Assembly (NCBI GenBank): GCA_041662665.1
Contig: JBAZSC010000004.1
Location: forward strand, 10,464-74,463
Length of the DNA stretch: 64,000 bases
Direction: 5' to 3'
From: Patescibacteria group bacterium
Lineage (GTDB): Bacteria > Patescibacteriota > JABMPQ01 > JAQVVF01
This document shows positions 18,653 through 55,790 of the stretch, in pieces; the first letter of the stretch is position 1, and every line of letters starts with the position of its first letter. The notes below the pieces were generated by a model. It saw only the letters and a program-made list of their open reading frames with translations, ran no database searches and was not told the origin of the DNA. Position numbers and translations under genes: made by a program.

Positions 18653-18847
18653 TTACTTCTTGTTGATCTCATCGATTATTTCTTTTATTTTTTTATCGTC
18701 TAAACCATGAGCCATACAACCTTGTTCAATTGTTTCACCATGCGCCATCAAGCAACCAACGCAAGGCAAACCATGCTTAACCAAAACATCAACAGTTTCT
18801 GGTTTTTCCTCAACTGCTTTACTAATTAAAGTATCTTTTGTGATCAT
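18653..18847 (-). CDS. Small redox protein, DUF1858-like (CxxC-containing)
   Basis: 64 aa with GLPCVGCLMA...GCMAHG Cys pairs; adjacent to the ferredoxin gene. Confidence 0.45.
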   Translation of the reverse strand: MITKDTLISKAVEEKPETVDVLVKHGLPCVGCLMAHGETIEQGCMAHGLDDKKIKEIIDEINKK

Positions 18848-18855: not shown

Positions 18856-19056
18856 TTATAATTTTGTAATTTTAATACATTGCACTGGACATGCATCAGC
18901 AGCCTCTTGGTTACAACTAATTTCATCTACTTCTGGATTTTTTGGAAATGATTTATTATTTTCACCCTTTAATTCAAAATTTTCCGGACAAATTGTTGTG
19001 CAAGCACCACAGCTAATACATTTTTCTTGATCAATTTCGATTTTAAATTTCGCCAT
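18856..19056 (-). CDS. 4Fe-4S ferredoxin (single-cluster type)
   Basis: 66 aa with CISCGACTTICP plus CP C-terminal cysteines. Confidence 0.75.
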   Translation of the reverse strand: MAKFKIEIDQEKCISCGACTTICPENFELKGENNKSFPKNPEVDEISCNQEAADACPVQCIKITKL

Positions 19057-19075
19057 ATTTTTTTATTAAATAATA

Positions 19076-19101
19076 TAATACAAATATACAAATTTATGCA
19101 A
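19076..19101 (-). promoter_or_regulatory. Conserved promoter-like block (TTGCATAAATTYGTATATTTGTATTA) upstream of ferredoxin
   Basis: The reverse complement matches the block upstream of hsp20 and ruvB and lies 19 nt from the ATG. Confidence 0.45.
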
Positions 19102-19185
19102 ATGATACAAATTGCGAATACGTCGATTCGTAATTCGCAACATTCGTATTATTCGTATTCGCATTCGTATTATATTTTATGTTTT

Positions 19186-20355
19186 TTAAAAAGACAATTG
19201 CTTTAATTTCTCTAGCACCACTTTTTCCACATCCAACAAACTAATATTATCAAAATCAACTAAAATTAAGCCGTTCACTTTCTTACCCATAAAAATATCT
19301 CTGATTTTTTCTTTTGCTGAATCTTTATTGGTTTTGAAAATTGCTTTAACTCGTCCTTGCTGAAATTCATAAAAAATTATCACAATTTCTGCTAAATTCA
19401 CTGACATTGAAATTTCTTCTTCAACTCCCAAAATATCATTTTCTTCCTTTGATCCAGTCTTTTCAAAATCTTGATAATTAACTAATGTCCAAGCAATCTT
19501 TTTCGCATCATCAAATTTTACTCGAGCCAAAGCTCTGCCCCATAATTTCAAAGTTGATAATGATTTATTCTTAAAAATTGATTTAATAATTTTTTGCTGA
19601 TCTGCACCAAGCGCAATTAATTGCGCTGCAATTGTAAAAGATCTTGGTGTTGTTGTTGATGTTTGAAAACTCTTTGTTGATGACACGATTCCTGTCAACA
19701 AACAATTTGCAATTTCCTCATCAACTATTTTTTCGCCAAAAGATTCTAACAAAGTATACACAACTTCGGAAGTTGAAGAAGCTGTTACATCAACTAAATT
19801 CACTTCTCCATATTGCTCATTTGATGAACTGCTATCAATATTTATAATTGGAGTTTCATAAAATAATTCTGTATTTTCTTCATATATTTTTCCAAGCTTT
19901 TCTAAATCTGGAACATCAATACAAATTATCAAATTATATTTAAAACCAGAAGGTTTTGTTATCACATTGCTTGCATCATAATTTCCTTTTTCTGGAGTAA
20001 TATAAATATTTAATTTATTTCCATCCTCATCAAAATCATAAGAAAATTGAGCGACTTTTGCTTTTGATGTGTCTAATGTAATCACAAAATTCTTAGAGCC
20101 ATCAATTGTTTTTCCTAATTTAGAAATATTAGGCAAAAATGATAATGTCGAAGATATCGGTGCAGAACAAACCATATCAACTTCATGTCCGCCCATTTTT
20201 TCCAAAACTAAACCCAAGGAAAGCAAACTTCCAATCGAATCTTCATCAAAATCGGCCTTTGTTACTAATAAAATATTCTTGCTCTTTTTTATTAATTCAA
20301 AAATCTGTTGCTTAGATGATAATTCCATAAAATTTAAAAAAATTACAATATACAA
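19186..20355 (-). CDS. DHH-family phosphoesterase-like protein (NrnA-like architecture with degenerate catalytic motifs)
   Basis: The NrnA-like N-terminal layout is present but DxD/DHH are replaced (DEDSIG; no DHH), and a DHHA1-like C-terminus follows. The first about 9 codons lie in the inverted repeat at 20344-20452, so the start is probably the downstream ATG near 20328. Confidence 0.45.
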   Translation of the reverse strand: MYIVIFLNFMELSSKQQIFELIKKSKNILLVTKADFDEDSIGSLLSLGLVLEKMGGHEVDMVCSAPISSTLSFLPNISKLGKTIDGSKNFVITLDTSKAKVAQFSYDFDEDGNKLNIYITPEKGNYDASNVITKPSGFKYNLIICIDVPDLEKLGKIYEENTELFYETPIINIDSSSSNEQYGEVNLVDVTASSTSEVVYTLLESFGEKIVDEEIANCLLTGIVSSTKSFQTSTTTPRSFTIAAQLIALGADQQKIIKSIFKNKSLSTLKLWGRALARVKFDDAKKIAWTLVNYQDFEKTGSKEENDILGVEEEISMSVNLAEIVIIFYEFQQGRVKAIFKTNKDSAKEKIRDIFMGKKVNGLILVDFDNISLLDVEKVVLEKLKQLSF

Positions 20356-20452
20356 ATCTCAAATTCCAAACAAATACCAAATCACAATACACAAAGATTT
20401 TTGGAATTTGGAATTTGGAATTTGTTTGGGATTTGGAATTTGGGATTTTAAT
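20344..20452. repeat. Long inverted repeat, caaattccaaa family
   Basis: tacaaatctcaaattccaaacaaatacc... pairs with ...ttggaatttggaatttggaatttgtttgggatttggaatttggg. Confidence 0.7.
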
Positions 20453-20564
20453 AAGTAATTCTATAACTCCAAAAATAATCTGTCAAATGTGGATTATTTT
20501 GTTAATTTTTGTTATCATAAATTTAGTTTAAATTATAATAAATATTAATTAACACAGTTACTGA

Positions 20565-21023
20565 TTGCTAGTTACTAGTTACTTCAAAATGGAAATTATT
20601 TCTAAATCATCGCAACAAACACAAGATATCGCTCACAAACTTGCTCAACAATTAAATGGTGGCGAAATTTTATGTTTCTCTGGTGAATTAGGTGCCGGAA
20701 AGACCACTTTTATTCAAGGCCTAGCCAAAGGATTAGAAATCAAAGAAAATCTAACTAGCCCAACTTTTGTCATCTTCAAAAAATATCCTGCCAAAAACAA
20801 TCTCGAATTTTATCATTTTGATTTATACAGAATTCATGATCCACAAGAAATTTTAGATTTGGGCTATACCGAAATCATTAATAACAAAAAAAATATATCA
20901 GCAATAGAATGGTCAGAAAAAATTAAGGATCAAATTCCACTCAAAAATGTAATTCATATTAACTTAGAATATCTCGACAAAGATCAAAGAAAAATAATAA
21001 TCAACGAGAATAATGAATTATGA
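20565..21023 (+). CDS. tsaE: tRNA threonylcarbamoyladenosine biosynthesis ATPase TsaE
   Basis: GELGAGKTT P-loop and SPTF motif; about 150 aa. An alternative start at 20589 is possible. Confidence 0.8.
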   Translation: MLVTSYFKMEIISKSSQQTQDIAHKLAQQLNGGEILCFSGELGAGKTTFIQGLAKGLEIKENLTSPTFVIFKKYPAKNNLEFYHFDLYRIHDPQEILDLGYTEIINNKKNISAIEWSEKIKDQIPLKNVIHINLEYLDKDQRKIIINENNEL

Positions 21024-21162
21024 ATCAAGAATTATGATTAGAATTATGAATTACTGAATAACGATTTTTTTAATTTTCATAATTCTCAATTCAATATTCA
21101 AATCATCATTCATAATTCATCATTCATAATTCATAATTCATAATTCATAATTCATAATTCAC
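21010..21162. repeat. Imperfect inverted oligo-repeat (gaattatga / tcataattc words)
   Basis: gaattatgaatcaagaattatgattagaattatgaatt lies opposite (cataattcat)n x about 6. Confidence 0.6.
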
Positions 21163-24078: not shown

Positions 24079-24152
24079 ACTTTTTTATTAATTAGTAGTG
24101 ATATTCCTGCCTGATAACAGTCAGGTATAACAAAATTTGCGTAAATTCACAA

Positions 24153-26000
24153 TTATCTTCCGATTGCATAATATCTTTCCGAATAATTAAATGGCGAACT
24201 TAAATAAATCATAAAAGTATTTTTTTTAGTATTCGGCTTGACTTGCAAATCCGCCCATTCTCTTGATTCAGAATTATATAATTTTAGATAAAGATTTTTC
24301 TCTTTCAAACCTTTTACCTTTTTCTTTAAAGCCTTAAATTCTTTATTAGTATAAGAAAATACTAATTTTAATTTTACTGGTTTGCTAGAATTATATTTTT
24401 GATAATCAGTTTTAATTTTCCAATATTTCTTTATCAAATTATGCTTTGCGTCAACAAAAAGTTTCGTATACTTTTTTTGCCTCTCAACCAAAAAATATCT
24501 TTTTGTCTTTTTAAAACTTTTTGGAAATTTTTTGAAAGTCAAATTTAATTCTCTTGCATAATATTTTTTATTTTTTTTCTTGATTTTAACTTCATTCTTT
24601 TTCTTGGATTTTTTTGTTGTAAATTTTGGATTGCCAACATATTTAACAATTTGTGAAACAACATCTGATTCAGCATGCCAAGCATCTCTATATTTTACAT
24701 AAACAGTTTTCTTGCCTTTTTTTGCTGGCATTTTAAATGTCTTATCAGCCAAATAACTTTGCCAAGTTTTGTTTGAAAAATCAGATTTTGTTGACACAAT
24801 CATTTCGACCGGACTTTCAGTCAAAGAAGATGTAATATGAATTTTTCTATAAGCAGAATATTTACGTCCATAATTTATTTCTGTTATTTGATTTGAAGGA
24901 CCAGGAGTATTAGCAAGTTTTAATTTCTCGCTTGTCTGATCATAATATGCGATATAGGCTCTGTTTTTTGAATCCACATCCAAAGATGGATAACCAACAA
25001 CATCGCTGTCATTCAAAGTATTTTTTACAAAAGAATCAGTTACATTGCTCATATAGCCTATCCAATTTCCTCCTCCAACTGTTCCGCCATAATAACTTAA
25101 ACGAACCTTATTATCAGAATCTAAAGCTAAAGAATTATTAAATGCTGTAAAATCAGGCAAGATTTCACTATCCATATCGCTTATCGTCCAATTACTGTCT
25201 GCCGTTGTTTTAGTCGCATATTTAAGCGTCGTATTAGGATTAGCTAAATACAAATAAGCCAAATGTGCTGTATTATTGCTATCAAACTTCAAAGAATTAA
25301 AATAACCAGTTCTATAAGTACTATCAATCGCGCTCAATACCCAACTGCCGGAAACATTAGTCGCATATTTCAAATAATCATTTGTCCCTTCAAAATAAGC
25401 AATATGAACTTTATTATTAGAATCAATAGCCAGAGAATTAAACGTTCCACTATTATCAACCGTATCCAAAGTCTCATAAACCCAATCACCAGTAACATTA
25501 GTCGCATATTTCAAATGATCATTAGTACCATCATAATAAGCAATATGCGCCTTATTATTTGAATCCAAGGCTAAAGACGGATATGAACCAGCTTCAATTG
25601 TCGGATCTAAAATTGTTACTTGCCAAGAACCAGAAGCATTAGTCGCATACCGCAATTGATCTTCAATCATAGCATAATAAGCCAAATAAAAATTATTATT
25701 AGAATCAACTGCCGAAGAAATAAATAATCCTGCATAAAGAGTATCATCAACAGTCTGTTGCTCCCAAGCCCCAGAAGCATTTGTAGCATACTTTATTTTA
25801 TGATCAGTATTATCAAAATAACCAATATAAATCTTATCATTACTGCCAACTTTTAAAGAAACAACAGCCGCACCTTCTGACACCATTGGCACGTTTCCCA
25901 TATCAGCCACATCGCTAAAAACCCAATCAGCAGCCTTAACATTTTGGCCAAAAATAAACAAAGTAAAAACAACAATCAAAATTAACAATCCTTTTTTCAT
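24153..26000 (-). CDS. Secreted repeat protein, paralog 2 of 6
   Basis: Same architecture: signal peptide, 7 repeats, beta module after the TPGPS linker, and a lysine-rich C-terminal domain ending RYYAIGR. Confidence 0.8.
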   Translation of the reverse strand: MKKGLLILIVVFTLFIFGQNVKAADWVFSDVADMGNVPMVSEGAAVVSLKVGSNDKIYIGYFDNTDHKIKYATNASGAWEQQTVDDTLYAGLFISSAVDSNNNFYLAYYAMIEDQLRYATNASGSWQVTILDPTIEAGSYPSLALDSNNKAHIAYYDGTNDHLKYATNVTGDWVYETLDTVDNSGTFNSLAIDSNNKVHIAYFEGTNDYLKYATNVSGSWVLSAIDSTYRTGYFNSLKFDSNNTAHLAYLYLANPNTTLKYATKTTADSNWTISDMDSEILPDFTAFNNSLALDSDNKVRLSYYGGTVGGGNWIGYMSNVTDSFVKNTLNDSDVVGYPSLDVDSKNRAYIAYYDQTSEKLKLANTPGPSNQITEINYGRKYSAYRKIHITSSLTESPVEMIVSTKSDFSNKTWQSYLADKTFKMPAKKGKKTVYVKYRDAWHAESDVVSQIVKYVGNPKFTTKKSKKKNEVKIKKKNKKYYARELNLTFKKFPKSFKKTKRYFLVERQKKYTKLFVDAKHNLIKKYWKIKTDYQKYNSSKPVKLKLVFSYTNKEFKALKKKVKGLKEKNLYLKLYNSESREWADLQVKPNTKKNTFMIYLSSPFNYSERYYAIGR

Positions 26001-26050
26001 TATTTTATTTTAATTAACTTTTAACTTTAGATTTTAGACTTTTAACTCAC

Positions 26051-27895
26051 CTATCTGCCGATAGCATAATATCTTTCCGAATAATTAAATGGCGAATTTA
26101 GATAAATAATAAAAGTATGATTAGTTGTATCAGGTTTAACTTGTAAATCAGCCCAACTATCAGATTCAGAAACATAATATTTCAGATGCAAATTCTTTTC
26201 TTTTAATCCTTTAACTTTCTTTTTCAAAACTTTGAATTCATCGCTAGTATACTGAAATACTAATTTTAATCTAACTTGCTTGCTTCCTGTATATTTATTA
26301 AAGTCAGTATTTACTTTCCAATATTTTTTTAACAAATTGTGCTTTGCATCTGCAAAAAGTTTTGTGTATTTTAATTGTCTTTCAATTAGAAAATATCGCT
26401 TTGTATTTTTGAATTTAGTTGGATATTTTTTGAATTTAAGCTTTAGATCTCTTGCGTAATAAGTTTTATTCTTTTCTTTAACTTTCACTTCATTAGATTT
26501 CCTTGCTTTTTTTGTTACAAACTTTATTGGATTGCCAGTATATTTTACTTCTTGAGAAACAACATTAGATTCAGCATGCCAAATATCTCTGAATTTCATA
26601 TAAACAGTATTTTCACCTTTTTCTGATGGCATTCTAAATGTTGTATCAGCTGAATATGTTTTCCAAGTTTTATCTGAAAAATCAGATTTTGTTGAAACGA
26701 TCATTTCTGTTGGAGTTCCTGCAACTGTTGATTTTATATTAATATTTCTTGTTGCTGAATAATTTCTACCATTATTTATTTCAGAAGAAGTGATACTTGG
26801 ACCAGGAGTGAAAGCATAATTCAAATCATTATCAGTAGTATTATAATATGAAATATGAATACGATTATTTGAATCTACGTCAAGTGAAATTTGATTATAG
26901 TATCCAAATAATACCACTATGTATGATCCAACATTATCAATCACATTATATGTCCATGACCCTGAAGTATTAGTTGCATACTTTAATTGTTGCTCAGTAA
27001 CATCATAATAACCAATATGTACACCATTATTGTTATCAACAGCTATCGAAGTATTATATCCTGCTTGATTTGCCGTATCCAAATTCGTTGCAACCCAAAC
27101 ACCAGTAGAATTAGTAATGTATTTCAAATCTAAATTTGTAGCATCTAAATAACTAATATGGATGCTATTGTTAGTCCCAATCGCCAAAGAAGAATACCAT
27201 CCAGCCTCAACTGAATTATCTAAAGTACTTGTTGACCAAACACCAGACAAACTATTCGTCGCATATTTTAGAGTACTATTAGTTTCATCACGATAACTAA
27301 TATGCGCAAACCCATTTGAATCAATACCAAGCGAATTAAAAATGCCCACATCACCAACTGAATCAACTGTTGTCAACACCCAAGAACCGGTTGCATTAGT
27401 TGCATATTTTAAATCACTATTAGTTGAATCATAATAGCTAATTTGAACCGCATTATTTGCATTCAATACTATTGATGTATTATTTATATCAAAAATACCT
27501 ACTGTAATAGTACCTGAATTATCAACAGTTGTAGCAACCCAAGAACCAGAAGCATTTGTGGCATATTTCAAATTACTATTAGTATCATCAATATAACTAA
27601 TATGAGATTTGTTATTACTATCAATTGCTATTGAAACACCTTCGCCTACGTTTCCTGCACTATCTACAGTTGTAATAGCCCACGAACCTGACTCATTTGT
27701 TATATATTTCAAATCATTAGTACCAACTTCAAAATAAGCAATATGCACAAAGCCATTATGATCAACAGCAATCGCATTATCAGCGCCAGTATTTACAGCA
27801 TCGATTGAAGATTTCTGCCAATCCGCAGCCTTCACATTTTGGCCAAAGATAAACAAACCAACAATGGCCAGACAAATTAATAAATACTTCCGCAT
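26051..27895 (-). CDS. Secreted repeat protein, paralog 3 of 6
   Basis: Same architecture; ends RYYAIGR. Confidence 0.8.
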   Translation of the reverse strand: MRKYLLICLAIVGLFIFGQNVKAADWQKSSIDAVNTGADNAIAVDHNGFVHIAYFEVGTNDLKYITNESGSWAITTVDSAGNVGEGVSIAIDSNNKSHISYIDDTNSNLKYATNASGSWVATTVDNSGTITVGIFDINNTSIVLNANNAVQISYYDSTNSDLKYATNATGSWVLTTVDSVGDVGIFNSLGIDSNGFAHISYRDETNSTLKYATNSLSGVWSTSTLDNSVEAGWYSSLAIGTNNSIHISYLDATNLDLKYITNSTGVWVATNLDTANQAGYNTSIAVDNNNGVHIGYYDVTEQQLKYATNTSGSWTYNVIDNVGSYIVVLFGYYNQISLDVDSNNRIHISYYNTTDNDLNYAFTPGPSITSSEINNGRNYSATRNINIKSTVAGTPTEMIVSTKSDFSDKTWKTYSADTTFRMPSEKGENTVYMKFRDIWHAESNVVSQEVKYTGNPIKFVTKKARKSNEVKVKEKNKTYYARDLKLKFKKYPTKFKNTKRYFLIERQLKYTKLFADAKHNLLKKYWKVNTDFNKYTGSKQVRLKLVFQYTSDEFKVLKKKVKGLKEKNLHLKYYVSESDSWADLQVKPDTTNHTFIIYLNSPFNYSERYYAIGR

Positions 27896-27951
27896 AATTT
27901 TTTTGTTTTAAATTTTTAAATTTCTGAAACTAAATTTATATAAATTATATA

Positions 27952-29802
27952 TTATTTACCAATTGCATAATATCTTTGCGAAAAATTAAACGGAGATTTC
28001 AAATAAACCGTAAAAGTATTTTTCTTTGTATTGCGTTTAGCTGACAAATTAGTCCACTTTTTTGATTTCAAATTATATGCTTTTAGATATAAATTCTTTT
28101 CTTTCAACCCTTTTACTTTTTTCTTTAATTTTTTAAATTCTTTTTTAGAATATGAAAATACTAATTTTAATTTAACATTCTTACTTAATTTATATTTTGA
28201 AAAATCAGTATTAATTTTCCAATATTTTTTTAACAAATTATGCTTTGCATCCACAAAAAGTTTTGTAAATTTCTTTTTTCTCACAACCAAAAAATATCTT
28301 TTTGTTTTTTTAAAAGCTTTTGGATATTTTTTGAAAGTCAAATTTAATTCTCTAGCATAATATTTTTTATTTTTCTTTTTAATCCTTACTTCATTTTTTT
28401 TCTTCGCTTTTTTTGTAACAAACTTTGGATTACCGACATATTTGACATTAAAAGATACAACAGCAGATTCAGCACTATAGACATCTCTAAATTTAACGTA
28501 AATTGTTTTTATGCCTTTTTTTGAAGGCATTTTAAAAATCGTATTAGCCAAATAACTGCTCCAAATCTTATTAGAAAAATCAGACTTTGTCGAAACAATC
28601 ATTTCAGTAGGACTGCCAGAAACTGAAGATGCAATATTAATTTTTCTATAAGCTGAATAATCCCTTCCATTATTTATTGTTATTGTTTGAACTGAAGGTC
28701 CAGGAGTATAAGTATAATTCAAACTAGTATTAACTAAACCAGCACTAGTTTTAAAATAAATAACATGTGTTCGATTCATTGAATCTATTCCTAACGATAT
28801 TGGACGATAATATGCATTAAAAGTTTCAAAAGAAAACAAAAGACTGTACGATCCAGTATCCTGTTGATTATAAATTGACCATTGTCCAGAAACATTTGTC
28901 GCGTATTTTAATCTGCCATTTAAAATATCATGATAAGCAACATGCAATTTATTATTATCATCAATTTTTAATGAAGGATAATAGCCCACTTGACCTGCAC
29001 TGTCATTATCAATAACACTTGCAACCCATGCTCCTGAAATATTAGTAATATATTTTAAATCAGAGTTAGTATAATCCAAATAAGCAATATGAATTTTATT
29101 ATTTGAATCAATCGCTATGGAAGACTGAAGACCTACCGATCCATTAGAATCTAAAACTACAGATAGCCAAGAACCACTATCATTAGTAATATATTTTAAA
29201 TCGGAATTAGTAGTATCACGATAAGAAATATGCACCTTATTATTTGAATCCAATGCCAAAGAAGAACTACCTCCAACATCAGTACTAGAATCTATTGTTT
29301 CATTTGCCCATGAACCAGACACGTTTGTCGCATATTTCAAATTGCTATTATCTGAATCATAATAGCTTACATATATTTTTTTATTTCCATCCAAAGCCAT
29401 TGATACTTGTCCCAAGCCAATAGTTCCACTATTATCAATTATCTCGAAAACCCATGTTCCATTAACATTATTCGCATATTTTAACCAATCATTCGTTCTA
29501 TCTTCATAAACAATATATACTTTTCCATTAACATCTATTCCCAAAGAAGAATTACCAACATTAACAGAGTTATCAACAATTTCTGCCATCCAAGTACCAG
29601 AAGAATTAGTCGCATATTTCAAATCAGAATTAGTATTATCAAAATAACTAATATGAACTTTGTTATTTTGATCAATTGCTAATGCATTAACACTTCCAGC
29701 AGATGCCTCCAATTCCTGCGACTGCCAATCAGCAGCCAAAACATTTTGGCCAAACAGAAACAGACCAACAATGGCCAGACAAATTAATAAATACCTCCGC
29801 AT
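27952..29802 (-). CDS. Secreted repeat protein, paralog 4 of 6
   Basis: Same architecture; the 7 repeats are counted explicitly; ends RYYAIGK. Confidence 0.8.
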   Translation of the reverse strand: MRRYLLICLAIVGLFLFGQNVLAADWQSQELEASAGSVNALAIDQNNKVHISYFDNTNSDLKYATNSSGTWMAEIVDNSVNVGNSSLGIDVNGKVYIVYEDRTNDWLKYANNVNGTWVFEIIDNSGTIGLGQVSMALDGNKKIYVSYYDSDNSNLKYATNVSGSWANETIDSSTDVGGSSSLALDSNNKVHISYRDTTNSDLKYITNDSGSWLSVVLDSNGSVGLQSSIAIDSNNKIHIAYLDYTNSDLKYITNISGAWVASVIDNDSAGQVGYYPSLKIDDNNKLHVAYHDILNGRLKYATNVSGQWSIYNQQDTGSYSLLFSFETFNAYYRPISLGIDSMNRTHVIYFKTSAGLVNTSLNYTYTPGPSVQTITINNGRDYSAYRKINIASSVSGSPTEMIVSTKSDFSNKIWSSYLANTIFKMPSKKGIKTIYVKFRDVYSAESAVVSFNVKYVGNPKFVTKKAKKKNEVRIKKKNKKYYARELNLTFKKYPKAFKKTKRYFLVVRKKKFTKLFVDAKHNLLKKYWKINTDFSKYKLSKNVKLKLVFSYSKKEFKKLKKKVKGLKEKNLYLKAYNLKSKKWTNLSAKRNTKKNTFTVYLKSPFNFSQRYYAIGK

Positions 29803-29874
29803 AATTTTTTTGTTTTTATTCCACCAAAGTTCCGCAGAACGTAGGTGGATTAATTTTTAAAAACTTAAAATAAA

Positions 29875-31686
29875 CTATTTTATTCCAATCCCAAAAGTCC
29901 TTTTGCTAAAAGAAATTGGAGAATCAATTATTAAAGTAAAAGTTCTCTTTTTTAAATTTAAAGTTGCAAATGAATTTTTCCACTTTTTCTTTAATTTATT
30001 GTAATATAATAATTTCAAATCACTTTGTTTTAATGTCTTATTATTCTTTTTTAATTTTTTGAATTCTTTTTTAGAATAATTAAAAGTCACTTTTAATCTG
30101 AAATTATTCTTGGCTTTTTTATAAGTATATTTATTTAAATCATCTGTCACTAGCCAATATTTTTTTAATAGCTTATTTTTGTCTATTTTCTTAAAATAGT
30201 TACTGAATAATTTTGATTGAACAAAATATTTTTCTTTTTTTAAATTTTTTGGATATTTTGTCATTACAAAATTCAAATCTCTCGCAGAATAAACCTTGCC
30301 TTGCTTTTTCAACAAAACTTCATTAACTTTTCTAGCCTTTTTTGTTACAAATTTTGGATTTTTAATGTATCTAATTGTCTTTGTTAAAGCACCTGATTCA
30401 GCAAACCATTGATCTCTGAAATTGACATAAACTGTTTTTGTTCCATCAACTTTTGATAAAGTAAAAATCTTTGATGTATCATAAGCTTCCCAATTTGCAT
30501 TTGCAAAATCAGCATTTTCAGAAATTATCATTTCAGTTGGACTGCCTGCTGAAGATAAAGACAATGCTACTGTTCTTAAGGCAGTATATGCTTTATTAGA
30601 ATTAATCTTTAAACTTGTATTTGTTGGTCCCATAGAAGCAGCGTATTTTAAATCGCCATTTGTATGATCCTGATAAGCAATATGAATTCTATTTAGATCA
30701 TCAACCTTAATTGAAGTTTGAAAACCTAAAATTAAAGTATCGCTTCCTTGATCAACAATATATTTCTGAAAGGTTCCTGAAATATTTGTCGCATATTTCA
30801 AAGAATAATTTGGATAACCATCATGATAACTAATATGAGCATAATTATTTTTATCCAAGCTCAAACTAGAAAACATTCCAGTCAATCCTCCTGCTAAAAC
30901 TGCAGTATCAATTGTTGTTTTCTGCCAACTTCCAGATAAATTTGTAATATATTTCAAAGCTTGCACTCCGCCATCATAATAGCTAACATGCACTTTATTA
31001 TTTGTATCAACAGCAATTGAAGAATATTGTCCAACTCCTCCATTATCAATTGCTGAGCTTAAAAAAGATCCTGATTCATTTGTTGCGTATTTTAACCATT
31101 GATTACTGCTATCATAATAGCTAATATGAGCTTTGCCATTTGAATCAACTGCAATTGATGTATTGCTTGTAGAAGATAATGTTTCTACATCGTAGAAAAA
31201 CCAAGTTCCAGATGACTTGATTGCATATCTAACTTTTGATCCATTATAATAGCTAATATTCAATCGATCACTTGAATCAATCGCCATATCCACAAAAGTC
31301 CCGCCCAAAGCATCTAAAACAGAATTTCCCCAATTTCCTCCAGCATTTGTGGCATATTTCAAATCATCATTTACAGCATCATAATAAGCAATATGAATTT
31401 TGTTCGCTGAATCAACCACTAAAGAAGGATAAAGCCCAACCATTACTGAACTCTCGTCAATTATCGTAATTTGAAAACTGCCAGAACTATTAGTCGCATA
31501 TTTTAATTTACCATCACCAAGATATGCAATATGAACATATCCTAACGAATCAACACTAATTGATGTTCCATCTCCAGCAAAACCAGTTGCATCAACTGTT
31601 GTTTTTTGCCAATCTGCTGCCAACACAGTATGACCAAACAACATCAGGCAAAACATTGCCACCAAAATTAATAATTTCTTTTTCAT
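29875..31686 (-). CDS. Secreted repeat protein, paralog 5 of 6 (more divergent)
   Basis: Signal peptide, LKYATN repeats, beta module and a lysine-rich tail ending FGIGIK. Confidence 0.75.
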   Translation of the reverse strand: MKKKLLILVAMFCLMLFGHTVLAADWQKTTVDATGFAGDGTSISVDSLGYVHIAYLGDGKLKYATNSSGSFQITIIDESSVMVGLYPSLVVDSANKIHIAYYDAVNDDLKYATNAGGNWGNSVLDALGGTFVDMAIDSSDRLNISYYNGSKVRYAIKSSGTWFFYDVETLSSTSNTSIAVDSNGKAHISYYDSSNQWLKYATNESGSFLSSAIDNGGVGQYSSIAVDTNNKVHVSYYDGGVQALKYITNLSGSWQKTTIDTAVLAGGLTGMFSSLSLDKNNYAHISYHDGYPNYSLKYATNISGTFQKYIVDQGSDTLILGFQTSIKVDDLNRIHIAYQDHTNGDLKYAASMGPTNTSLKINSNKAYTALRTVALSLSSAGSPTEMIISENADFANANWEAYDTSKIFTLSKVDGTKTVYVNFRDQWFAESGALTKTIRYIKNPKFVTKKARKVNEVLLKKQGKVYSARDLNFVMTKYPKNLKKEKYFVQSKLFSNYFKKIDKNKLLKKYWLVTDDLNKYTYKKAKNNFRLKVTFNYSKKEFKKLKKNNKTLKQSDLKLLYYNKLKKKWKNSFATLNLKKRTFTLIIDSPISFSKRTFGIGIK

Positions 31687-31763
31687 GATTTTCCCTCGTC
31701 CGCCATGCTTCTTCGCTTAAGCGAAGAGCGAAGGCGGATATTAAATAGTAATTATTTTAAAAT

Positions 31764-33614
31764 TTATTTTTTTCCTATTGCATAATAAATTTCATTCCAA
31801 GATATCGGCGAAATCAAAGTGATAGCAAATGTCCTATTTTTCACAGAATGTACGGCATTTAAATTATGCCATTTCTTTTCTTTAACATTATAATATTTTA
31901 AAACCAAACTACTTTCTGACAAACCTTTATTTCTATTTTTTAAAGTCTTGAATTGCTTTTTTGTATATTTAAAAACAAATTTAGTTTTAAAATTATCAGC
32001 TAATTTATATTTATTAAAATTACCTTTTATTTTCCAATATTCTTTAATCAAATTTTTCTTGGCTGCAATATAAGTTTTTGAATATTTTCTATATCTTTTT
32101 ACTTGCCAAGAATATTTTGCTTTTTTCAAACCTTTTGGCAATTTCAAAAATTTTAAATAAAATTTTTGAGCAGTATATTTTTTATTTTTCTTTTTTATTA
32201 AAATTTCTTTGCTTTTTGCATTTTTTGTTACAAAAGTTGGATTTGGCAAATATTTAATTGAATCAGAAACAGTTGCTGATTCCGCATACCATTGATCTCG
32301 AAATTTTACATAAATAGTCTTTTTGCCAACCCTAGAAGACATTTCAAAAACTTTATTCACATTATATGTTTCCCATTCTGCTCCAGCAAAAGTAGAATAT
32401 TCAGACAACATCATTTCTGTTGGATTGCTAGTTGCAGATAAAACCAAATCAACATCTTTAAAATTTGTATATTTTTTACCTGCTTCTATTACAACTTCTG
32501 GACTTATTGGACCAAGTACATCAGCAAATTTTACTTCACCATCCCAAGGAGAATAAGTATGCAGATAAAATAGACCAACGTAAAGTCTGTTTGAAGAATC
32601 CATAGCCAAAGAAATTGGCTGTTCAGCTGTATGAATTGCATCTCCAATATCACTAACAGCTACAGTTGAAAAACTTGTCCCAACATTATTTGCCAGCTTA
32701 AAATCAAAGTTATCCACATCATAATATCCAATTCTTACTCTTGAATTGCTATCAACTACTAGAGAAGAATATATTCCAACATCTCCAGCAGTATCAACTG
32801 TCGAATTTGACCAATAGCCCAACATATTATTTGCGTATTTCAAATCTCGATTCCCGCGATCATAATAACTAATATGAACGAAATCACTATCGTCAATTTT
32901 TATTGAACTAAACTCACCAACATTACCGCTATCAACGGTTTGAGCCACAAAATTTCCAGAAGAATTTGTAATATATTTTAAAGATAGATTTGCCGAATCA
33001 TAATAACTGATATGGACTTTATTGTAATCATCAACAGTTAATGAAGAAAATAGTCCGACAAAAGTACTACTGCTATCTATTGTTGATAATGTAAAACCAG
33101 TTCCATTAGAATTTGTTGCGTATTTTAAATCGTCATTTGTTAAATCATAATAACTAATATGCACATAACCTAATGAATCAACACCAATCGAATCATACAT
33201 ACCAACTTCGCCTGTTGTATCAATTGATGATGCTGCCCACACTCCAGAAGCATTAGTCGCATATTTCAAATCAGAATTAGCATAATCATAATAACTAACA
33301 TGCGCCTTATCATTATAATCTATTGCAATTGATGGATACTGTCCCAAACCAGAACCAAGATCAATTGTTTCACTCACAAAACTGCCAGATGCGTTTGTTG
33401 CATATTTTAGATAATAAGTTGCACCAGTTGTCTCTAAATAAACCAGATGCGCTTTGCTATTTGAATCCAAAGCAATTGCCACAATAGGACCAACACCTAC
33501 TCCTCTCGACAATGACTCAAATTGCCAATCCGATGCCTTTGCTTGACCAAAAAAACAAAAGACACAAGACAACGTTGCAAAAACCACTCCTAAAATTAGA
33601 GATTTTTTTCTCAT
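31764..33614 (-). CDS. Secreted repeat protein, paralog 6 of 6 (more divergent)
   Basis: Signal peptide, LKYATN repeats and a lysine-rich tail ending YYAIGKK. Confidence 0.75.
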   Translation of the reverse strand: MRKKSLILGVVFATLSCVFCFFGQAKASDWQFESLSRGVGVGPIVAIALDSNSKAHLVYLETTGATYYLKYATNASGSFVSETIDLGSGLGQYPSIAIDYNDKAHVSYYDYANSDLKYATNASGVWAASSIDTTGEVGMYDSIGVDSLGYVHISYYDLTNDDLKYATNSNGTGFTLSTIDSSSTFVGLFSSLTVDDYNKVHISYYDSANLSLKYITNSSGNFVAQTVDSGNVGEFSSIKIDDSDFVHISYYDRGNRDLKYANNMLGYWSNSTVDTAGDVGIYSSLVVDSNSRVRIGYYDVDNFDFKLANNVGTSFSTVAVSDIGDAIHTAEQPISLAMDSSNRLYVGLFYLHTYSPWDGEVKFADVLGPISPEVVIEAGKKYTNFKDVDLVLSATSNPTEMMLSEYSTFAGAEWETYNVNKVFEMSSRVGKKTIYVKFRDQWYAESATVSDSIKYLPNPTFVTKNAKSKEILIKKKNKKYTAQKFYLKFLKLPKGLKKAKYSWQVKRYRKYSKTYIAAKKNLIKEYWKIKGNFNKYKLADNFKTKFVFKYTKKQFKTLKNRNKGLSESSLVLKYYNVKEKKWHNLNAVHSVKNRTFAITLISPISWNEIYYAIGKK

Positions 33615-33796
33615 TATTTTTGTTTTTTATTTTAATAAATTTTAATTACTGATATCTTAACATTTTTTTACCTATTTAACAAAAAAGCTATCCACTGCCA
33701 AAATTTACATTATGCCAATAATAATGTATAATAAAATTAATCAAATATCATTTTTAAAAACAGAATTAAAATTAGAAAAAGTATTTGCATTATTTG

Positions 33797-33836
33797 CATA
33801 TTCGCAATATTTGCATAAATTCGTATATTTGTATTA
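33797..33836 (+). promoter_or_regulatory. Conserved about 40-nt promoter-like block ending at the hsp20 start codon (candidate leaderless promoter: TTCGCA-17-TATATT)
   Basis: catattcgcaatatttgcataaattcgtatatttgtatta is near-identical (1 mismatch) to the block upstream of ruvB and is related to the block upstream of ferredoxin. Confidence 0.5.
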
Positions 33837-34393
33837 TGCCTAAACAATCTTTTTTCGCAAGATTTTTACAATCAAAACAAGTTGCTGACAATCCTACGCC
33901 GCCAAAACCACCAGTTGGACATCTGCCAACTCCAAAGACTTCTCAGCCAGATCCAGCTCCAATCCAAGTTCAACAGCAACAACAACCACAACCTCAACAA
34001 AATTCTTCTCAATCTTCACAAGATAGTCAAGAAAATTACGAAGGCCAGCTTGCTATTGATGTTTATCAAACTCCTCAAGAAATAGTTATTAAATCAACAA
34101 TTGCTGGTGTTAATCCAGAAAACATTGACATCAATATCGATAATGACATGGTTACAATCAAAGGCGAAAGAAAAAATATCACTGAAGCAAAAGAAAATGA
34201 TTATTATTATCAAGAATGTTATTGGGGCTCTTTTTCAAGATCAATTATCTTGCCAGAAGAAGTCGTTGCTGATAATGCTGTTGCTGAATTAAAAAATGGA
34301 ATTCTGACAGTCAGATTACCAAAAGCAAATGCCGTTAAAACCAAAAAAATAGAAGTCAAAATGGCGAGCGATACAGTGACTAGTAATCAATAA
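33836..34393 (+). CDS. Hsp20/alpha-crystallin family small heat-shock protein with a Q/P-rich N-terminal extension
   Basis: Alpha-crystallin domain (LAIDVYQT...VTIKGER...AELKNGILTVRLPK). The start is assigned to the ATG at 33836 (MPKQSFF). Confidence 0.85.
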   Translation: MPKQSFFARFLQSKQVADNPTPPKPPVGHLPTPKTSQPDPAPIQVQQQQQPQPQQNSSQSSQDSQENYEGQLAIDVYQTPQEIVIKSTIAGVNPENIDINIDNDMVTIKGERKNITEAKENDYYYQECYWGSFSRSIILPEEVVADNAVAELKNGILTVRLPKANAVKTKKIEVKMASDTVTSNQ

Positions 34394-35333: not shown

Positions 35334-37073
35334 ATGCCTAAAAAAATATTTAAAACTTTTTTTATAATTTCAATCATTTTCTTAACCACGTTAAGCCTTT
35401 CTTTAATTGTCTTAAATTTTTATTACAAAGATAAATTTTATCCAGGTACAACAATTGCTAATTTTAATGTTTCTGGAAAAACAAAACAACAAGCAACTGA
35501 TTTTTTAAATAATAAATTAGAAGAATTTAATCAAGGAATTAGTTTTGTTAATAAAGATTATAACCAAAAAATAAAACCAGAACTTTTTGGCGTTGAAATT
35601 GATTTAGAAAAAACAATCAATCAAGCTTTTGATAAAACAAATTCTGGAAGCAAACATAATCGAAGTTTCAATATCATTAAAACTTTAATTTTAAAAGATC
35701 ATAATAATTTAATTTATTCGATCCAATCAAATAAATTAGAAAATTTTTACAATCAAGAATTATCCAAATTAGACCAGCAAAAAAAAGAGACCAACATCTC
35801 TTTTCAAAAAAATAATTTAAAAATAATTTCTGGAAATTCGGGCTTTTCTTTAAACAAGCAATTTTTAACAAGCTTAATAAATTCCAGAATTAAAAATTTA
35901 TCAGCTGACGAAATAAATGTTCCATTTCAAAAAATCAATCCTGAAAATAATAAAAAAATAATTTTTAAAACAAGTCTTGAAGCCAAAAATATTGTTTCAC
36001 AAAAAATTATTTTGCAATACGAAAAAGATAAGTGGATAATTGACCAAGATACGTTAAAATCCTGGGCTAATTTTGCTGTTCAAAAAACACCAATTACTAG
36101 TTATCCAAGTCTAAATAAAAATTATCCAGTACAAAATCTAATTTATAATTCTTTATCAACTAAACAAAAAAATAATTTTCAAGATCAACTAGTTGCCTAT
36201 TTTGACCGACAAAAAATCGGCGATTATTTATCAAAAGAAATTGCGCCAAAAATCAATCAAGCTCCTCAAAATATCCGCTTGCAAATGCAAAATAATGAAT
36301 TAACAATTTTTCAGCCTGCCAAAAAAGGCAAAGAATTATTAATCGAAGGCAATCTAAAAAATATTATTGATAATATCAAAAATCAAAATACCAAAATTAA
36401 ATTATTAACCAAATCTTTAGGCGCTGAAATTAACAAAAAAAATATCAAAGAACTTGGCATCAAAGAATTATTAGGCAAAGGCGAATCAAATTTTTCTGGA
36501 AGTCCTACCAATCGCATTCAAAATATTACTGTTGCCGCCCAAAAACTGAATGGTATTTTAGTAAAACCAAATGAAGAATATTCTTTAGTTAATAATTTAG
36601 GCGAGGTCAATGCTGAAGCAGGATACCTGCCAGAATTAGTTATTAAAGAAGACAAAACCATCCCAGAATATGGAGGAGGTTTATGCCAAATCGCCACCAC
36701 TAATTTTCGTGCTGCGCTAAATTCAGCCTTACCAATCACCGAACGCCAATCGCATTCTTATGCAGTCCAATATTATGATCCGCAAGGAACAGATGCTGCA
36801 ATTTACATTCCTCATCCAGATCTAAAATTTTATAACAATACTAAAAATTATATTTTAATTCAGACATCAATCTTTAATGATATTTTAACTTTTGAATTTT
36901 ATGGAACTAATGATGGCAGATCTGTCAGATTTGAGGGTCCAGAATATTGGGACCAAAAACCTGACAAATCATTCAAGGCAAAATATTCCCAAATTATTAC
37001 CTATCCCGACAAAACCGAAAAAAAATCAACCTTCTTTAGCTATTACGATAATCCTGATAAATACAAACACTAG
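35334..37073 (+). CDS. VanW-family protein with N-terminal TM anchor
   Basis: C-terminal VanW-like region (GGGLCQIATTNFRAALNS...YIPHPDLKF) and an N-terminal signal anchor. Confidence 0.6.
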   Translation: MPKKIFKTFFIISIIFLTTLSLSLIVLNFYYKDKFYPGTTIANFNVSGKTKQQATDFLNNKLEEFNQGISFVNKDYNQKIKPELFGVEIDLEKTINQAFDKTNSGSKHNRSFNIIKTLILKDHNNLIYSIQSNKLENFYNQELSKLDQQKKETNISFQKNNLKIISGNSGFSLNKQFLTSLINSRIKNLSADEINVPFQKINPENNKKIIFKTSLEAKNIVSQKIILQYEKDKWIIDQDTLKSWANFAVQKTPITSYPSLNKNYPVQNLIYNSLSTKQKNNFQDQLVAYFDRQKIGDYLSKEIAPKINQAPQNIRLQMQNNELTIFQPAKKGKELLIEGNLKNIIDNIKNQNTKIKLLTKSLGAEINKKNIKELGIKELLGKGESNFSGSPTNRIQNITVAAQKLNGILVKPNEEYSLVNNLGEVNAEAGYLPELVIKEDKTIPEYGGGLCQIATTNFRAALNSALPITERQSHSYAVQYYDPQGTDAAIYIPHPDLKFYNNTKNYILIQTSIFNDILTFEFYGTNDGRSVRFEGPEYWDQKPDKSFKAKYSQIITYPDKTEKKSTFFSYYDNPDKYKH

Positions 37074-37189
37074 ACAAGAATACAAATCTACAAATAACGC
37101 TAATCTACGAATATACGAATCGTCGTATTCGCATATTCGCTATATTGGCATTATTCGTATATTCGTATTTTACCCAACAAAAAACTGTA

Positions 37190-37330
37190 GGCTAATGTCC
37201 CGTGCTACCTTATGTGAACGCATATTTCACAGAAAATAGCGCGGGACGAAGTAACAATCCCAAGTGATTCAGTAGTAAAACACCGCCGAATCCTTTCTGA
37301 TTGTTCCTTATAAAATAGCTGCCTACAGAT
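37190..37330 (+). ncRNA. Candidate structured ncRNA (GC-rich nested-stem element in an AT-rich 436-nt intergenic region); strand uncertain
   Basis: Outer stem ctgtaggc (37194-37201) pairs with gcctacag (37319-37326). Inner stems include gtcccgtgc/gcgcgggac and tgtgaa/ttcaca. No match to the tRNA, tmRNA, SRP or RNase P signatures that I can recall. Confidence 0.25.
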
Positions 37331-37465
37331 TTTTGGCCACGAAAAACATTACTTTTTTTTCATGACTAAACAGCTTAGCATATTATATTTCGCCTGTCAA
37401 TACTTTTTGCTATAATATAATACGAATATGCAAATCTATGCAAATAATACGAATATACAAATTCG

Positions 37466-37505
37466 TATATTCGCAACATTTGCATAAATTCGTATATTTG
37501 TATTA
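37466..37505 (+). promoter_or_regulatory. Conserved about 40-nt promoter-like block upstream of ruvB
   Basis: gtatattcgcaacatttgcataaattcgtatatttgtatta ends 5 nt before the ATG at 37511. Confidence 0.5.
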
Positions 37506-37510
37506 CATAA

Positions 37511-38533
37511 ATGATAAAAAACACAACACCAAAAATCATCGCACCAGAAGAAAAATTAGAAGACAAAGCTCTTGATTTTACCTTAAGACCAAAAAAATTA
37601 GATGAATTTATTGGCCAAAACAAGCTAAAAGAAAACCTCAAGATCTTAATTCAAGCTGCAAACATGAGAAAAGAACAAATTGATCATTTGTTACTTTATG
37701 GCCCTCCTGGTACTGGAAAAACAACACTTGCCAACATTATTTCTTGTGAAACAAACGTCAATATCAGAGTCACTTCAGGACCAGCCTTAGAAAAAGCCGG
37801 AGATCTAGCTGCCATTTTAACAAACCTAAAAGATAATGATATTTTGTTTATTGATGAAATACACAGAATGAACAAAAACATTGAAGAAGTCCTTTATCCT
37901 GCCATGGAAGACTATTCTTTAGACATCGTTCTAGGCAAAGGTCCTTCTGCCAAAACAGTCAGATTAGATTTGCCAAAATTTACTCTTATCGGCGCAACTA
38001 CCAGAATTGGTTTATTATCATCACCTCTTCGCGATCGTTTTGGTGCAATTTATCATTTAGATTTTTATGAAGATCACGAATTAGAAAAAATTGTCACTAG
38101 ATCAGCCAATATTCTAAATATAAAAATTGAAGCTTCGGGTTCATCAGAAATCGCTAAAAGATCTAGAAAAACTCCTCGAATTGCCAACAGATTATTAAAA
38201 CGAGTTCGCGATTTTTCTCAAGTAAAATCAGATGGTACAATTACTCAAGCAACTGCTAAAAAAGCTTTAGATTTATTAGAGATTGATAGCTTAGGATTAG
38301 ATGCCGTTGACCGCAAAATTTTAATGACTATTATCCAAAAATTTAATGGCGGACCAGTAGGTATTAAAACAATTTCTCAATCAACTGCCGAAGAACAAGA
38401 TACATTAGAAGAAGTTGTTGAACCATTTTTATTGCAACTCGGTTTTATCAATCGTACAGCCAAAGGCCGAGAAACAACCAGTCTTGCTTATCAACATTTA
38501 GGCATTACTAACATCAAAGAATGGAAAAAATAG
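37511..38533 (+). CDS. ruvB: Holliday junction branch-migration helicase RuvB
   Basis: [11 protein letters not shown] Walker A, DEIHRMN Walker B and the RuvB C-terminal winged helix. Confidence 0.95.
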
Positions 38534-38573
38534 TTTTTTTACTTTTTAATTTTTCCTTTTTACTTTTTTTAAC

Positions 38574-38798
38574 ATGCCAATTTACATCATCTATATAATT
38601 TTTTATGCCCTTCTCGCAATCTACATCATTGCCAGTTTTTTAGTCATTAATTATATTTATAAATATAAACATTTAGGTCCAGCTGTAAAATATCTTATTC
38701 CGCTTTATATTGCCGTATCATTAATCATTATAATTATTGCTAATTTTTATATATTAAAGACCGGCTTTTCCGAAATTATCACTTTAAATATTTTTTAA
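38574..38798 (+). CDS. Hypothetical small membrane protein
   Basis: 74 aa with two hydrophobic helices. Confidence 0.35.
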   Translation: MPIYIIYIIFYALLAIYIIASFLVINYIYKYKHLGPAVKYLIPLYIAVSLIIIIIANFYILKTGFSEIITLNIF

Positions 38799-38830
38799 TT
38801 TTATTTACTTATTACTAGTTACTTTCGCTC

Positions 38831-39346
38831 ATGCTAAATTACACTCTTAATCCAGACGAAAAATTAATAATGCTTATTAGAAAACATAAGATCTACTATC
38901 TAAAACATGCTTTAGTAATATTATTTTTATCAATTTTACCAATTTTATTATATCTATTTTTAGCCTTAAATTTTGAAGATCTATTCAATCCAATAATTGA
39001 TACTTTATTTATAATCATAAGTTCTATCTATTATTTAGCTATTCTTTTTTTCTCACTTATCAGCTGGATGAATTATTATCTTGATGTTTGGTTGGTTACT
39101 AATGAAAGAATAATTGAATACGAACAGAAAAGCCCATTTCGTCGCGAAACTGGTGAATTAATGCTTGAATCAATTGAAGATGTCTCAGTTAAAGTTGAAG
39201 GCATTATTCCATCAATTATAAAATCTGGCAACATTTATGTTCAAACTGCAGGCCAAGCCGAAAGATTTATTTTTACAGATGCGCCAAGACCTGAAGAAAT
39301 TAAAGAAACAATTGTTAAACTAACACATCAATCACTGCATCAATAA
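38831..39346 (+). CDS. Hypothetical membrane protein (two TM helices plus a C-terminal bPH/YdbS-like region?)
   Basis: 171 aa; TM hairpin followed by a soluble domain. Confidence 0.4.
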   Translation: MLNYTLNPDEKLIMLIRKHKIYYLKHALVILFLSILPILLYLFLALNFEDLFNPIIDTLFIIISSIYYLAILFFSLISWMNYYLDVWLVTNERIIEYEQKSPFRRETGELMLESIEDVSVKVEGIIPSIIKSGNIYVQTAGQAERFIFTDAPRPEEIKETIVKLTHQSLHQ

Positions 39347-48146: not shown

Positions 48147-48258
48147 AAATCTCAAATTACAAACAAATCTCAAATCACAAAGATACAAACTTTAAATCCT
48201 ATTTTGTAATTTGTCTTTTGTAATTTGTTTGGAATTTGGAATTTGGAATTTTCGTAAC
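48147..48258. repeat. Long inverted repeat, caaattccaaa family, overlapping the 3' end of the 48192-49766 gene
   Basis: Left arm ctcaaattacaaacaaatctcaaatcacaaag; right arm gtaatttgtcttttgtaatttgtttggaatttggaatttggaatt. Confidence 0.7.
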
Positions 48259-53882: not shown

Positions 53883-53884
53883 AA

Positions 53885-53962
53885 ACGTGAATTAAGAATC
53901 ATGAATTAAGAATTATGAATTTTATCATAATTCTTGATTCTTTATTCATGATTCTCGTGGCT
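53885..53962. repeat. Inverted oligo-repeat (gaattaagaatcatgaatt / aattcttgattctttattcatgattc)
   Basis: Related to the words at 21010-21162 and 35270-35330. Confidence 0.55.
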
Positions 53963-54446: not shown

Positions 54447-54585
54447 TAATCAATTACCAATAATCAATAAATAATCAATTTCCAATAACTAAATAATCAA
54501 TAAAATCGTCGCAATTTTGATTATTAAATTATTGGTTATTGGTTTTTTACTGATTATTGAAATTTGATTATTGGTTATTTAAGCC
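54440..54585. repeat. Inverted oligo-repeat (aataatcaat / attgattatt words)
   Basis: aataatcaataatcaattaccaataatcaataaataatcaatttcc... lies opposite ...ttgattattaaattattggttattgg. Confidence 0.6.
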
Positions 54586-55671: not shown

Positions 55672-55790
55672 TTCACAATTACCAATTTACAATCAATTAA
55701 TCAATGATCAATAATCAATTTTCGACGAAGTTTTGTAAATTGTAAATTAGTAAATTTATTGAAAATTGATAATTGGTAATTGAAAATTAA
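55655..55790. repeat. Inverted oligo-repeat (caattatcaat / attgataattg words)
   Basis: caattatcaattcacaattaccaatttacaatcaattaatcaatgatcaataatcaatt lies opposite aaattgataattggtaattgaaaatt. Confidence 0.55.

Follow-up and report, generated by a model that had tools for sequence, protein, structure and literature searches.

A block shared by the leaders of hsp20, ruvB and a ferredoxin gene in a patescibacterium is probably one arm of a young dispersed repeat

Why should a near-identical block of 40 nt precede hsp20, ruvB and, in variant form, a ferredoxin gene in one and the same bacterial genome? A sequence-only reading of the window, i.e. the whole 64-kb stretch of DNA analysed here, had regarded the block at positions 33797-33836 as a promoter giving rise to leaderless transcripts, accompanied by octamers that could act as an operator, and had proposed a small stress regulon. 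If this were true, such a regulon would give one of the few insights into how genes are controlled in an uncultured bacterium of the candidate phyla radiation. The comparison with related genomes points elsewhere: the block is probably the arm next to the gene in a young dispersed repeat that is specific to this species, and not evidence for a stress regulon. According to its RuvB protein the window belongs to Patescibacteria, and about 84 kb of this organism were covered in all.

Anatomy of the shared block

The identities of the genes adjoining the block are upheld by Pfam, and the relevant reading frames of the window are the following:

33836..34393, + strand: hsp20 coding sequence, 185 aa (Pfam HSP20, E = 9.8e-21)
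37511..38533, + strand: ruvB coding sequence, 340 aa (Pfam RuvB_N, E = 4.4e-79; RuvB_C also matched)
18856..19056, - strand: ferredoxin (fdx) coding sequence, 66 aa (Pfam Fer4_13)
18653-18847: DUF1858 gene, next after ferredoxin (Pfam DUF1858)

The similarity of the upstream regions is a genuine repeat and not a product of chance, since a 36-nt core, TTCGCAAYATTTGCATAAATTCGTATATTTGTATTA, occurs exactly at 33801-33836 (+) and 37470-37505 (+) but in none of 100 dinucleotide-preserving shuffles, the chance expectation being nil. A 28-nt core, ATTTGCATAAATTYGTATATTTGTATTA, is also present at 19076-19103 (-) and, with three mismatches, at 37418-37445 (-). The distances reported earlier between block and start codon are likewise confirmed on the sequence: at hsp20 the block runs into the start codon, whose A at 33836 is its last base; at ruvB 5 nt separate the block from the ATG at 37511, and at ferredoxin 19 nt separate it from the ATG at 19056. 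Clusters of the underlying octamer, ATTYGYAT, are confined to four places in the window, namely 19078-19170, 33783-33834, 37080-37168 and 37420-37503.

What had been overlooked is that the blocks of ruvB and fdx each constitute one arm of a palindrome of about 90-105 bp, and that a further palindrome of the same family is located at 37072-37173. The members of the family in the window are:

33783..33835, + strand: solo arm with six octamer units that extends up to the hsp20 ATG and has the block 33797-33836 as its 3' portion
33801-33806 and 33824-33829, + strand: hexamers TTCGCA and TATATT of the hsp20 arm, separated by N17
37415..37507: inverted doublet occupying the ruvB leader, with 37415-37470 (-) as left and 37453-37507 (+) as right arm
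37470-37475 and 37493-37498, + strand: hexamers TTCGCA and TATATT of the ruvB right arm, separated by N17
19073..19175: inverted doublet occupying the ferredoxin leader; its arm nearer the gene is 19073-19128 (-), its distal arm 19117-19175 (+)
37072..37173: third inverted doublet, left arm 37072-37120 (-), right arm 37118-37173 (+)

The palindrome in the ruvB leader is centred on 37461/37462, its right arm being the block. The third doublet is not situated at a gene start; it lies between the stop codon of the VanW gene (37073) and the 3' end of a non-coding RNA (ncRNA) encoded on the minus strand.

Alignment of ten arms from seven loci identifies the block as the gene-proximal arm of a dispersed repeat, with arms of about 45-55 nt that comprise five ATTYGYAT octamers in fixed order according to the plan ATTCGCAT, ATTCGCAA, C, ATTTGCAT, AA, ATTYGTAT, ATTTGTAT, TATA. 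The ten arms can be aligned across all five units and the linkers, with the 3' part being best conserved, and the variants of the units are mostly C-to-T transitions apart. Arms come either as head-to-head inverted doublets (three) or as solo arms (four). The doublets are near-perfect palindromes of 90-105 bp devoid of a unique core, and a whole doublet is an inverted repeat with the ends TATAATACRAAT ... ATTYGTATTATA, thus showing the terminal inverted repeats by which a MITE is recognized. Five copies have 28-40 nt exactly in common. Moreover, in four of five near-identical copies the arm faces a start codon and ends 0-19 nt from it, a placement more orderly than random insertion, which hints at selection for a function. 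A profile built from the ten arms retrieved nothing further in the window and gave weak hits only in the relatives.

Copies on other contigs, empty sites and older promoters

An exact 23-mer of the block has no match in the GTDB genomes scanned and none in the viral contigs scanned, and a scan of metagenomes returned three contigs (L004, L005 and L006), all of which originate from one JGI sample. Around ruvB, the sequences of L006 and the window are 100% identical. L005 has a solo arm that abuts the ATG of smpB, as at hsp20, and a partial arm about 49 nt upstream of rpmI. On L004 an arm (1654-1710) resides inside an ORF (1106-2827) for a 573-aa glycosyltransferase of the DUF2142/PMT_2 type and runs antisense to it; in the sole open frame it encodes NTNIRIYANDTNMRIGELR within a variable loop, which homologues have in a form shorter by 7-15 residues. 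Since glycosyltransferase orthologues of more distant relatives contain diverged ATTCG-type units in the same loop, this intragenic insertion is considered old. The common sample, the common block and a recurring GC-rich REP lead us to infer a single genome for L004, L005 and the window, and the presence of this GTAG-type REP on both L004 and the window supports a common lineage. Presence/absence variation at the strain level was not found, as contigs from three to four metagenomes with identical RuvB, Hsp20 and Fdx all carry identical copies. Samples in which the organism occurs are JGI 3300014208, ENA ERZ27249449, SRR6484324 and SRR18595301. The assemblies L094 and L097 end inside the block, as is to be expected because a multi-copy repeat tangles assemblies.

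A different picture emerges from comparison with other genomes. The GTDB genomes L007 and L008 encode RuvB proteins that are 93-94% identical and are syntenic with the window at about 77% DNA identity, while the ferredoxin locus is covered by contigs of relatives whose DHH phosphoesterase, the gene neighbouring fdx, is 79-94% identical. Empty sites are found in the nearest relatives, with proteins 80-94% identical, at all three of the window loci, which is the presence/absence pattern of a MITE between genomes, and an older promoter can be recognized upstream of each repeat:

33704..33732, + strand: canonical hsp20 promoter TTTACA-N17-TATAAT, 11/12 match, conserved in L008
37408..37416, + strand: extended -10 promoter of ruvB, TGCTATAAT, conserved; the palindrome starts right after it
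19169..19197, - strand: fdx promoter TTGTCT-N17-TATAAT, read from the sequence; the palindrome begins at TATAAT

At hsp20, L008 aligns on either side of a clean gap of about 54 nt (roughly 33781-33834), and L090 likewise lacks the block and features TTTACA-N17-TAAAAT at the equivalent site; hence, judged by this conservation, TTTACA-N17-TATAAT at 33704-33732 is probably the ancestral hsp20 promoter. The palindrome 37415-37507 upstream of ruvB is absent from L007, L008 and L009, all of which retain the extended -10 element TG(C/T)TATAAT (TGCTATAAT in L007, TGTTATAAT in L008 and L009), followed by an unrelated leader of 44-50 nt without any repeat. The third palindrome, 37072-37173, is not present in these three genomes either. 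In L087 and L088 (DHH phosphoesterase 94% identical), L090 and L091, the spacers between the DHH gene and fdx measure 42-145 nt and contain no ATTYGYAT unit, and L090 shows TATAAT at the position equivalent to the fdx -10 hexamer. As far as can be judged from these alignments, the three window loci are lineage-specific insertions or replacements between an older predicted promoter and the start codon.

The region next to the third doublet contains a conserved candidate small RNA gene (37173-37365, -), which is divergent from ruvB; the predicted structure has a closing stem of 15 bp and a pair of hairpins, and compensatory changes occur in one hairpin in L008. Its promoter at 37372-37400 (-), TTGACA-N17-TAAG(C/T)T, is conserved in L007 and L008, and the homologue of L009 is shorter and has TTGACA-N17-TAAATT together with a U7 terminator. 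Rfam gives no match for this RNA. Searches of Rfam with the window and with 36950-37560 yielded tRNAs and miRNA-precursor matches only, the latter being artefacts because of the long palindromes. The right arm 37118-37173 was considered as the promoter of the ncRNA and rejected, because the RNA is encoded on the minus strand and has its own conserved TTGACA-N17-TAAGYT on the opposite side.

Origin and possible functions of the arm

On the explanation favoured here, that of a young dispersed repeat, the arms have entered or replaced the 5' leaders of three window genes, hsp20, ruvB and fdx, and those of smpB and rpmI on other contigs of the population, and in all these places they lie downstream of older canonical sigma-70 promoters, which in the sister genomes would serve alone. 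The near-identity of the copies is then due to a recent shared ancestor, from which a selfish or near-neutral repeat spread by copying or by gene conversion, and not to a common operator; transcription starting at the conserved upstream promoters would run through the copies as leader sequence. Replacement of the whole leader up to the ATG, by recombination or gene conversion between leaders, could give the same picture equally well. Neither a target-site duplication nor a link to a transposase was found, the junctions being unreadable in AT-rich and palindromic flanks with relatives that are about 77% identical in DNA; the element is thus a candidate MITE. Independent slippage in place, with each array born from local AT-rich octamers and no copying between loci, would be in keeping with the pervasiveness and quick turnover between relatives of tandem arrays with a 7-8-nt period, with variants that differ mainly by C-to-T changes and with the diverged ATTCG-type units in the loop of the glycosyltransferase orthologues. 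However, ten arms have the same order of five units, the same linkers and, in five copies, exact stretches of 28-40 nt, so that slippage is refuted as the sole explanation and must be deemed very improbable.

The dispersed-repeat explanation leaves room for a contribution of the arm to transcription. The sequence-only reading had proposed TTCGCA-N17-TATATT as a -35/-10 pair that sets the transcription start at or next to the start codon. Several elements of this proposal stand, i.e. the hexamers, their N17 spacing and the 6 nt between TATATT and the ATG at hsp20, and the leaderless geometry is strengthened because the copy at smpB is fused to its ATG in the same manner, again with TATATT 6 nt before the ATG. 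Other observations count against it: the match to consensus in the promoter scan, 9/12 at both plus-strand sites, is at chance level for this AT-rich DNA (30 sites of such quality in the window versus 23.1 +/- 4.2 in shuffles), and the block is not conserved as a promoter before the orthologues in L007, L008, L009, L087, L088, L090 or L091, where other canonical promoters are conserved. Transcripts initiated from the -10 hexamer of the arm would have a leader of 5-6 nt at ruvB and of about 19 nt at fdx. The earlier remark on the scarcity of SD sequences is borne out, with SD-like motifs at 3 of the 42 gene starts of the window. Moreover, in 7 of the 42 genes a hexamer resembling a -10 box (TAnnWT) has its end 6 nt from the ATG, the commonest spacing against a background of about two per offset, and the VanW gene (start 35334) exhibits TGCTAGAAT-N6-ATG, which is conserved in relatives. 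Leaderless initiation may be widespread in the lineage. The arm end, with TTCGCA-N17-TATATT and an ATG 6 nt further on at hsp20 and smpB, may thus give a weak secondary promoter reminiscent of Correia elements; that the arm adds such a promoter and yields leaderless or very short-leader mRNA is put forward as a tentative suggestion that is less likely than not. A promoter of the Bacteroidetes type (TAnnTTTG) was dropped from consideration, every promoter conserved among the relatives being of the standard sigma-70 type.

It would go further to assume that the arm is primarily a portable sigma-70 cassette recruited before several genes, with the copies elsewhere as by-products, and this appears rather unlikely; the same doubt attaches to its corollary that the transcripts of hsp20 and smpB are leaderless and those of ruvB and fdx short-leadered. 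In addition to hexamers and spacing at both hsp20 and ruvB, the commonest -10-to-ATG distance of 6 nt with its conserved instance at VanW would fit such a cassette, as would the exact junction of arm and ATG in two independent genes (hsp20 and smpB) and the orientation of all three solo intergenic arms towards the downstream gene. On the contrary, the hexamer at the -35 position varies between arms (TTCGCA, TTTGTA, TTCGTA), a TG extension is missing, 9/12 matches occur at chance frequency and stronger conserved promoters are already present for each gene. Furthermore, an arm with the identical ...GTATTATG end occurs on L004 inside the ORF, antisense, where it is then followed by just a 15-codon frame. 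A still broader proposal holds the arm to be a portable promoter and leaderless-start cassette within a rapidly turning-over, lineage-specific system that rewrites leaders, and we consider it improbable. It is equally improbable in its extended form, in which mobilization or recombination would be aimed at promoter-proximal DNA, the host would retune expression, and other families of short-unit palindromes would be included.

With respect to the proposed stress regulon, the octamer array would be the operator of a dedicated regulator that jointly controls hsp20, ruvB and ferredoxin. Tandem units of 8-10 bp constitute the operators of ribbon-helix-helix repressors, e.g. the metboxes of MetJ and the heptads of omega, which the octamers in both orientations near promoters resemble, and hsp20, ruvB and smpB may all count as stress-related. 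Yet the block is missing before the orthologues of hsp20, ruvB and fdx in all relatives examined, including the closest ones, which share the canonical promoters. The claim of an octamer operator is equally contradicted by arms in non-promoter contexts (the 3'-3' junction at 37072-37173 and the glycosyltransferase ORF) and at rpmI, and the genes with arms (hsp20, ruvB, fdx, smpB, rpmI and the glycosyltransferase loop) form an incoherent set. CIRCE, HAIR, CtsR and LexA boxes, searched for with up to two mismatches in the three upstream regions, are absent. In addition, at least eight other unit types occupy equivalent positions before other genes, and one regulator per unit type is implausible in a small genome. 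Taken together, these observations render the regulon highly unlikely. As the sequence-only reading itself had put it, copies unrelated to gene starts would reduce the block to just another repeat; this applies in part, namely to the copies at the 3'-3' junction and within the ORF.

The repeat could also be taken to work in mRNA, where it would stabilize the 5' end as a hairpin, serve RNase III as a site or act as the RNA thermometer of hsp20. The doublets fold into long hairpins of -28 to -42 kcal/mol (z = -3.5 to -9.8), with -35.1 kcal/mol on the plus and -41.7 on the minus strand at ruvB, and -27.8 (+) and -39.5 (-) kcal/mol for 37072-37173. As the doublets of ruvB and fdx begin about 1-3 nt past the -10 hexamer, the transcript would open with a hairpin of -33 to -35 kcal/mol; mRNAs of bacteria are stabilized by 5'-terminal hairpins, and the hairpins of Correia elements are RNase III substrates (PMC2649163). 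The sense strand is, however, not consistently favoured, the ruvB hairpin being more stable antisense and the fdx hairpin more stable sense. A thermometer would be expected at hsp20, yet precisely this copy is a structureless solo arm: the leader 33740-33850 folds at -11.8 kcal/mol with z = -0.17, which speaks against an RNA thermometer or any other structure sequestering the hsp20 start. A primary role in mRNA is hence assigned a low probability.

Relation to known elements and to other repeats of the genome

The ATTYGYAT repeat appears closest to Correia elements in its behaviour and closest to REPINs in its doublet/singlet form. Like the Correia elements of Neisseria (CREE/NEMIS), which are small non-coding palindromes of about 100-150 bp beside genes, it is present or absent between relatives, and the outward end of its arm bears -35/-10-like hexamers beside a start codon, where promoter activity is putative. 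In Correia elements, 26-bp terminal inverted repeats enclose a unique core that carries an IHF site, and TA is duplicated at the target, whereas the ATTYGYAT element comprises two octamer arms without a core or a visible target duplication, and solo arms are common. For CREE, PMC2649163 states that a promoter can be created at either end and that hairpins form in co-transcribed mRNA.

REPINs, as portrayed in PMC3337134 and PMC3116915, consist of two inverted repeats that give a long hairpin, occur as singlets too and are non-autonomous and extragenic, and the three hairpin-forming inverted doublets plus four solo arms described here are alike in this regard. The REP unit itself is depicted in PMC3733652 as a palindrome of 20-40 bp with a GTAG or CGTC head. 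In contrast, the ATTYGYAT arm is a direct array without self-structure (z = -0.17), with CGTCG/CGACG at the inner end of some arms only, and the repeat falls outside REP by the tests that define membership. A RAYT-like gene is nevertheless present on L004 (2873-3526; 217 aa), with matches to NCBIfam REP_Tyr_transpos at E = 3.3e-11, which is below the curated cutoff, and to Pfam Y1_Tnp at E = 0.009. It is flanked not by ATTYGYAT arms but by GC-rich GTAG-type CCCTGCCGTGGGCAGGGTAG repeats (L004:2845-2867 and 3515-3537), so its partner is likely the GC-rich REP and not the ATTYGYAT family; by this arrangement, the GC-rich REPs and the RAYT-like gene of L004 look like a REP-RAYT unit in a patescibacterium. 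The GC-rich GTAG-type REP (AACCCCTGCCGTGGGCAGGGTAGAA) also occurs in the window at 63172-63196 (-) and 63236-63288, and a RAYT gene was not found beside the copy at 63172, the neighbouring ORFs being without a match. As a further observation, a GC-rich palindrome at about 1480-1545 of L004 lies in frame in the glycosyltransferase ORF and accounts for 20 aa that are missing from all homologues, and similar GC-rich hairpins precede the window genes 29875-31686, 27952-29802 and 50379-51467.

Two further families deserve comparison. Rickettsia palindromic elements (RPE) are short palindromes that reside in frame inside coding genes without destroying them, which is matched by the one arm encoding NTNIRIYANDTNMRIGELR in frame in the loop of the DUF2142/PMT_2 protein; unlike RPE, a single intragenic copy was seen here, which is old, and most copies reside in leaders. 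ERIC/IRU sequences are imperfect palindromes of about 100-130 bp in transcribed intergenic regions and able to alter the fate of mRNA, and the ATTYGYAT doublets are likewise imperfect palindromes on the 100-bp scale in transcribed intergenic DNA. ERIC is unrelated, being a defined unique sequence found across genera, whereas the ATTYGYAT family consists of octamer arrays in one species-level lineage.

The family is embedded in intergenic DNA that is rich in repeats of other kinds. Many intergenic regions contain arrays of other 7-11-nt units, which are often palindromic, and arrays with a period of 6-12 nt make up 24% of the intergenic as against 2.2% of the coding DNA of the window. Such short-unit arrays turn over among three syntenic genomes, and patescibacterial loci have more of them than do those of other phyla. 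AT-rich arrays with a 6-12-nt period occur in four of seven divergent but in none of five convergent spacers, one of which has a GC-containing array of another kind; since the arrays are present in divergent and mostly missing from convergent spacers, they are not simply intrinsic terminators. The ATTYGYAT family is not alone in its pattern of insertion: in the leader of the DHH phosphoesterase (window 20356-20470), an inserted CCAAATT palindrome of about 95 nt is confined to the window, being absent in L087, L090 and L091, and the DHH promoter upstream of it, TTGACA-N17-TA(G/A)AAT (TAGAAT in the window), is conserved in four genomes. Recurring AT-rich array families are CCAAATT/AAATTAC, TTCATAA, TTGATTA, TATAAAGT and TTTTTAC, with examples at 10791-10890, 20359-20448, 21008-21161, 48147-48251, 53877-53955, 54437-54579, 55661-55788 and 56138-56203.

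Several other features of the window were recorded alongside. A TTTTTAC array at 38536-38568 precedes the gene after ruvB (38575-39346, +), the ATG of which is placed at 38575 by conservation in L007 and L008, as opposed to 38831 in the mechanical ORF list. Between 40600 and 44100 the G+C content rises to 38-39% versus about 30%, 8-nt arrays of GACGCTCC and GCTCCCAC are present, the ORFs on its two strands are all short and overlapping, and this region aligns weakly to L007 and L008. On the minus strand, 22030-33614 encompasses six tandem ORFs of about 600-680 aa, which look like an array of paralogous surface proteins; the first has a chitobiase C-terminal domain and Fn3-associated domains, and another one tested, 31764-33614, gave no Pfam match. 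Despite genes on both strands, 31 of the 32 bins of 2 kb show a negative GC skew (as low as -0.34), the exception being +0.04 at 6001-8000, and as the skew does not switch, the window contains neither an origin nor a terminus of replication.

Because young dispersed repeats can yield shared upstream sequence, motif-based prediction of regulons in such genomes needs a check for empty sites in sister genomes. The occurrence of several repeat families in 5' leaders beyond conserved promoters, together with the high proportion of intergenic DNA occupied by arrays, bears on the question of how very small genomes packed with genes cope with repeats and perhaps exploit them, and the loci described here provide sites for testing leaderless initiation in Patescibacteria.
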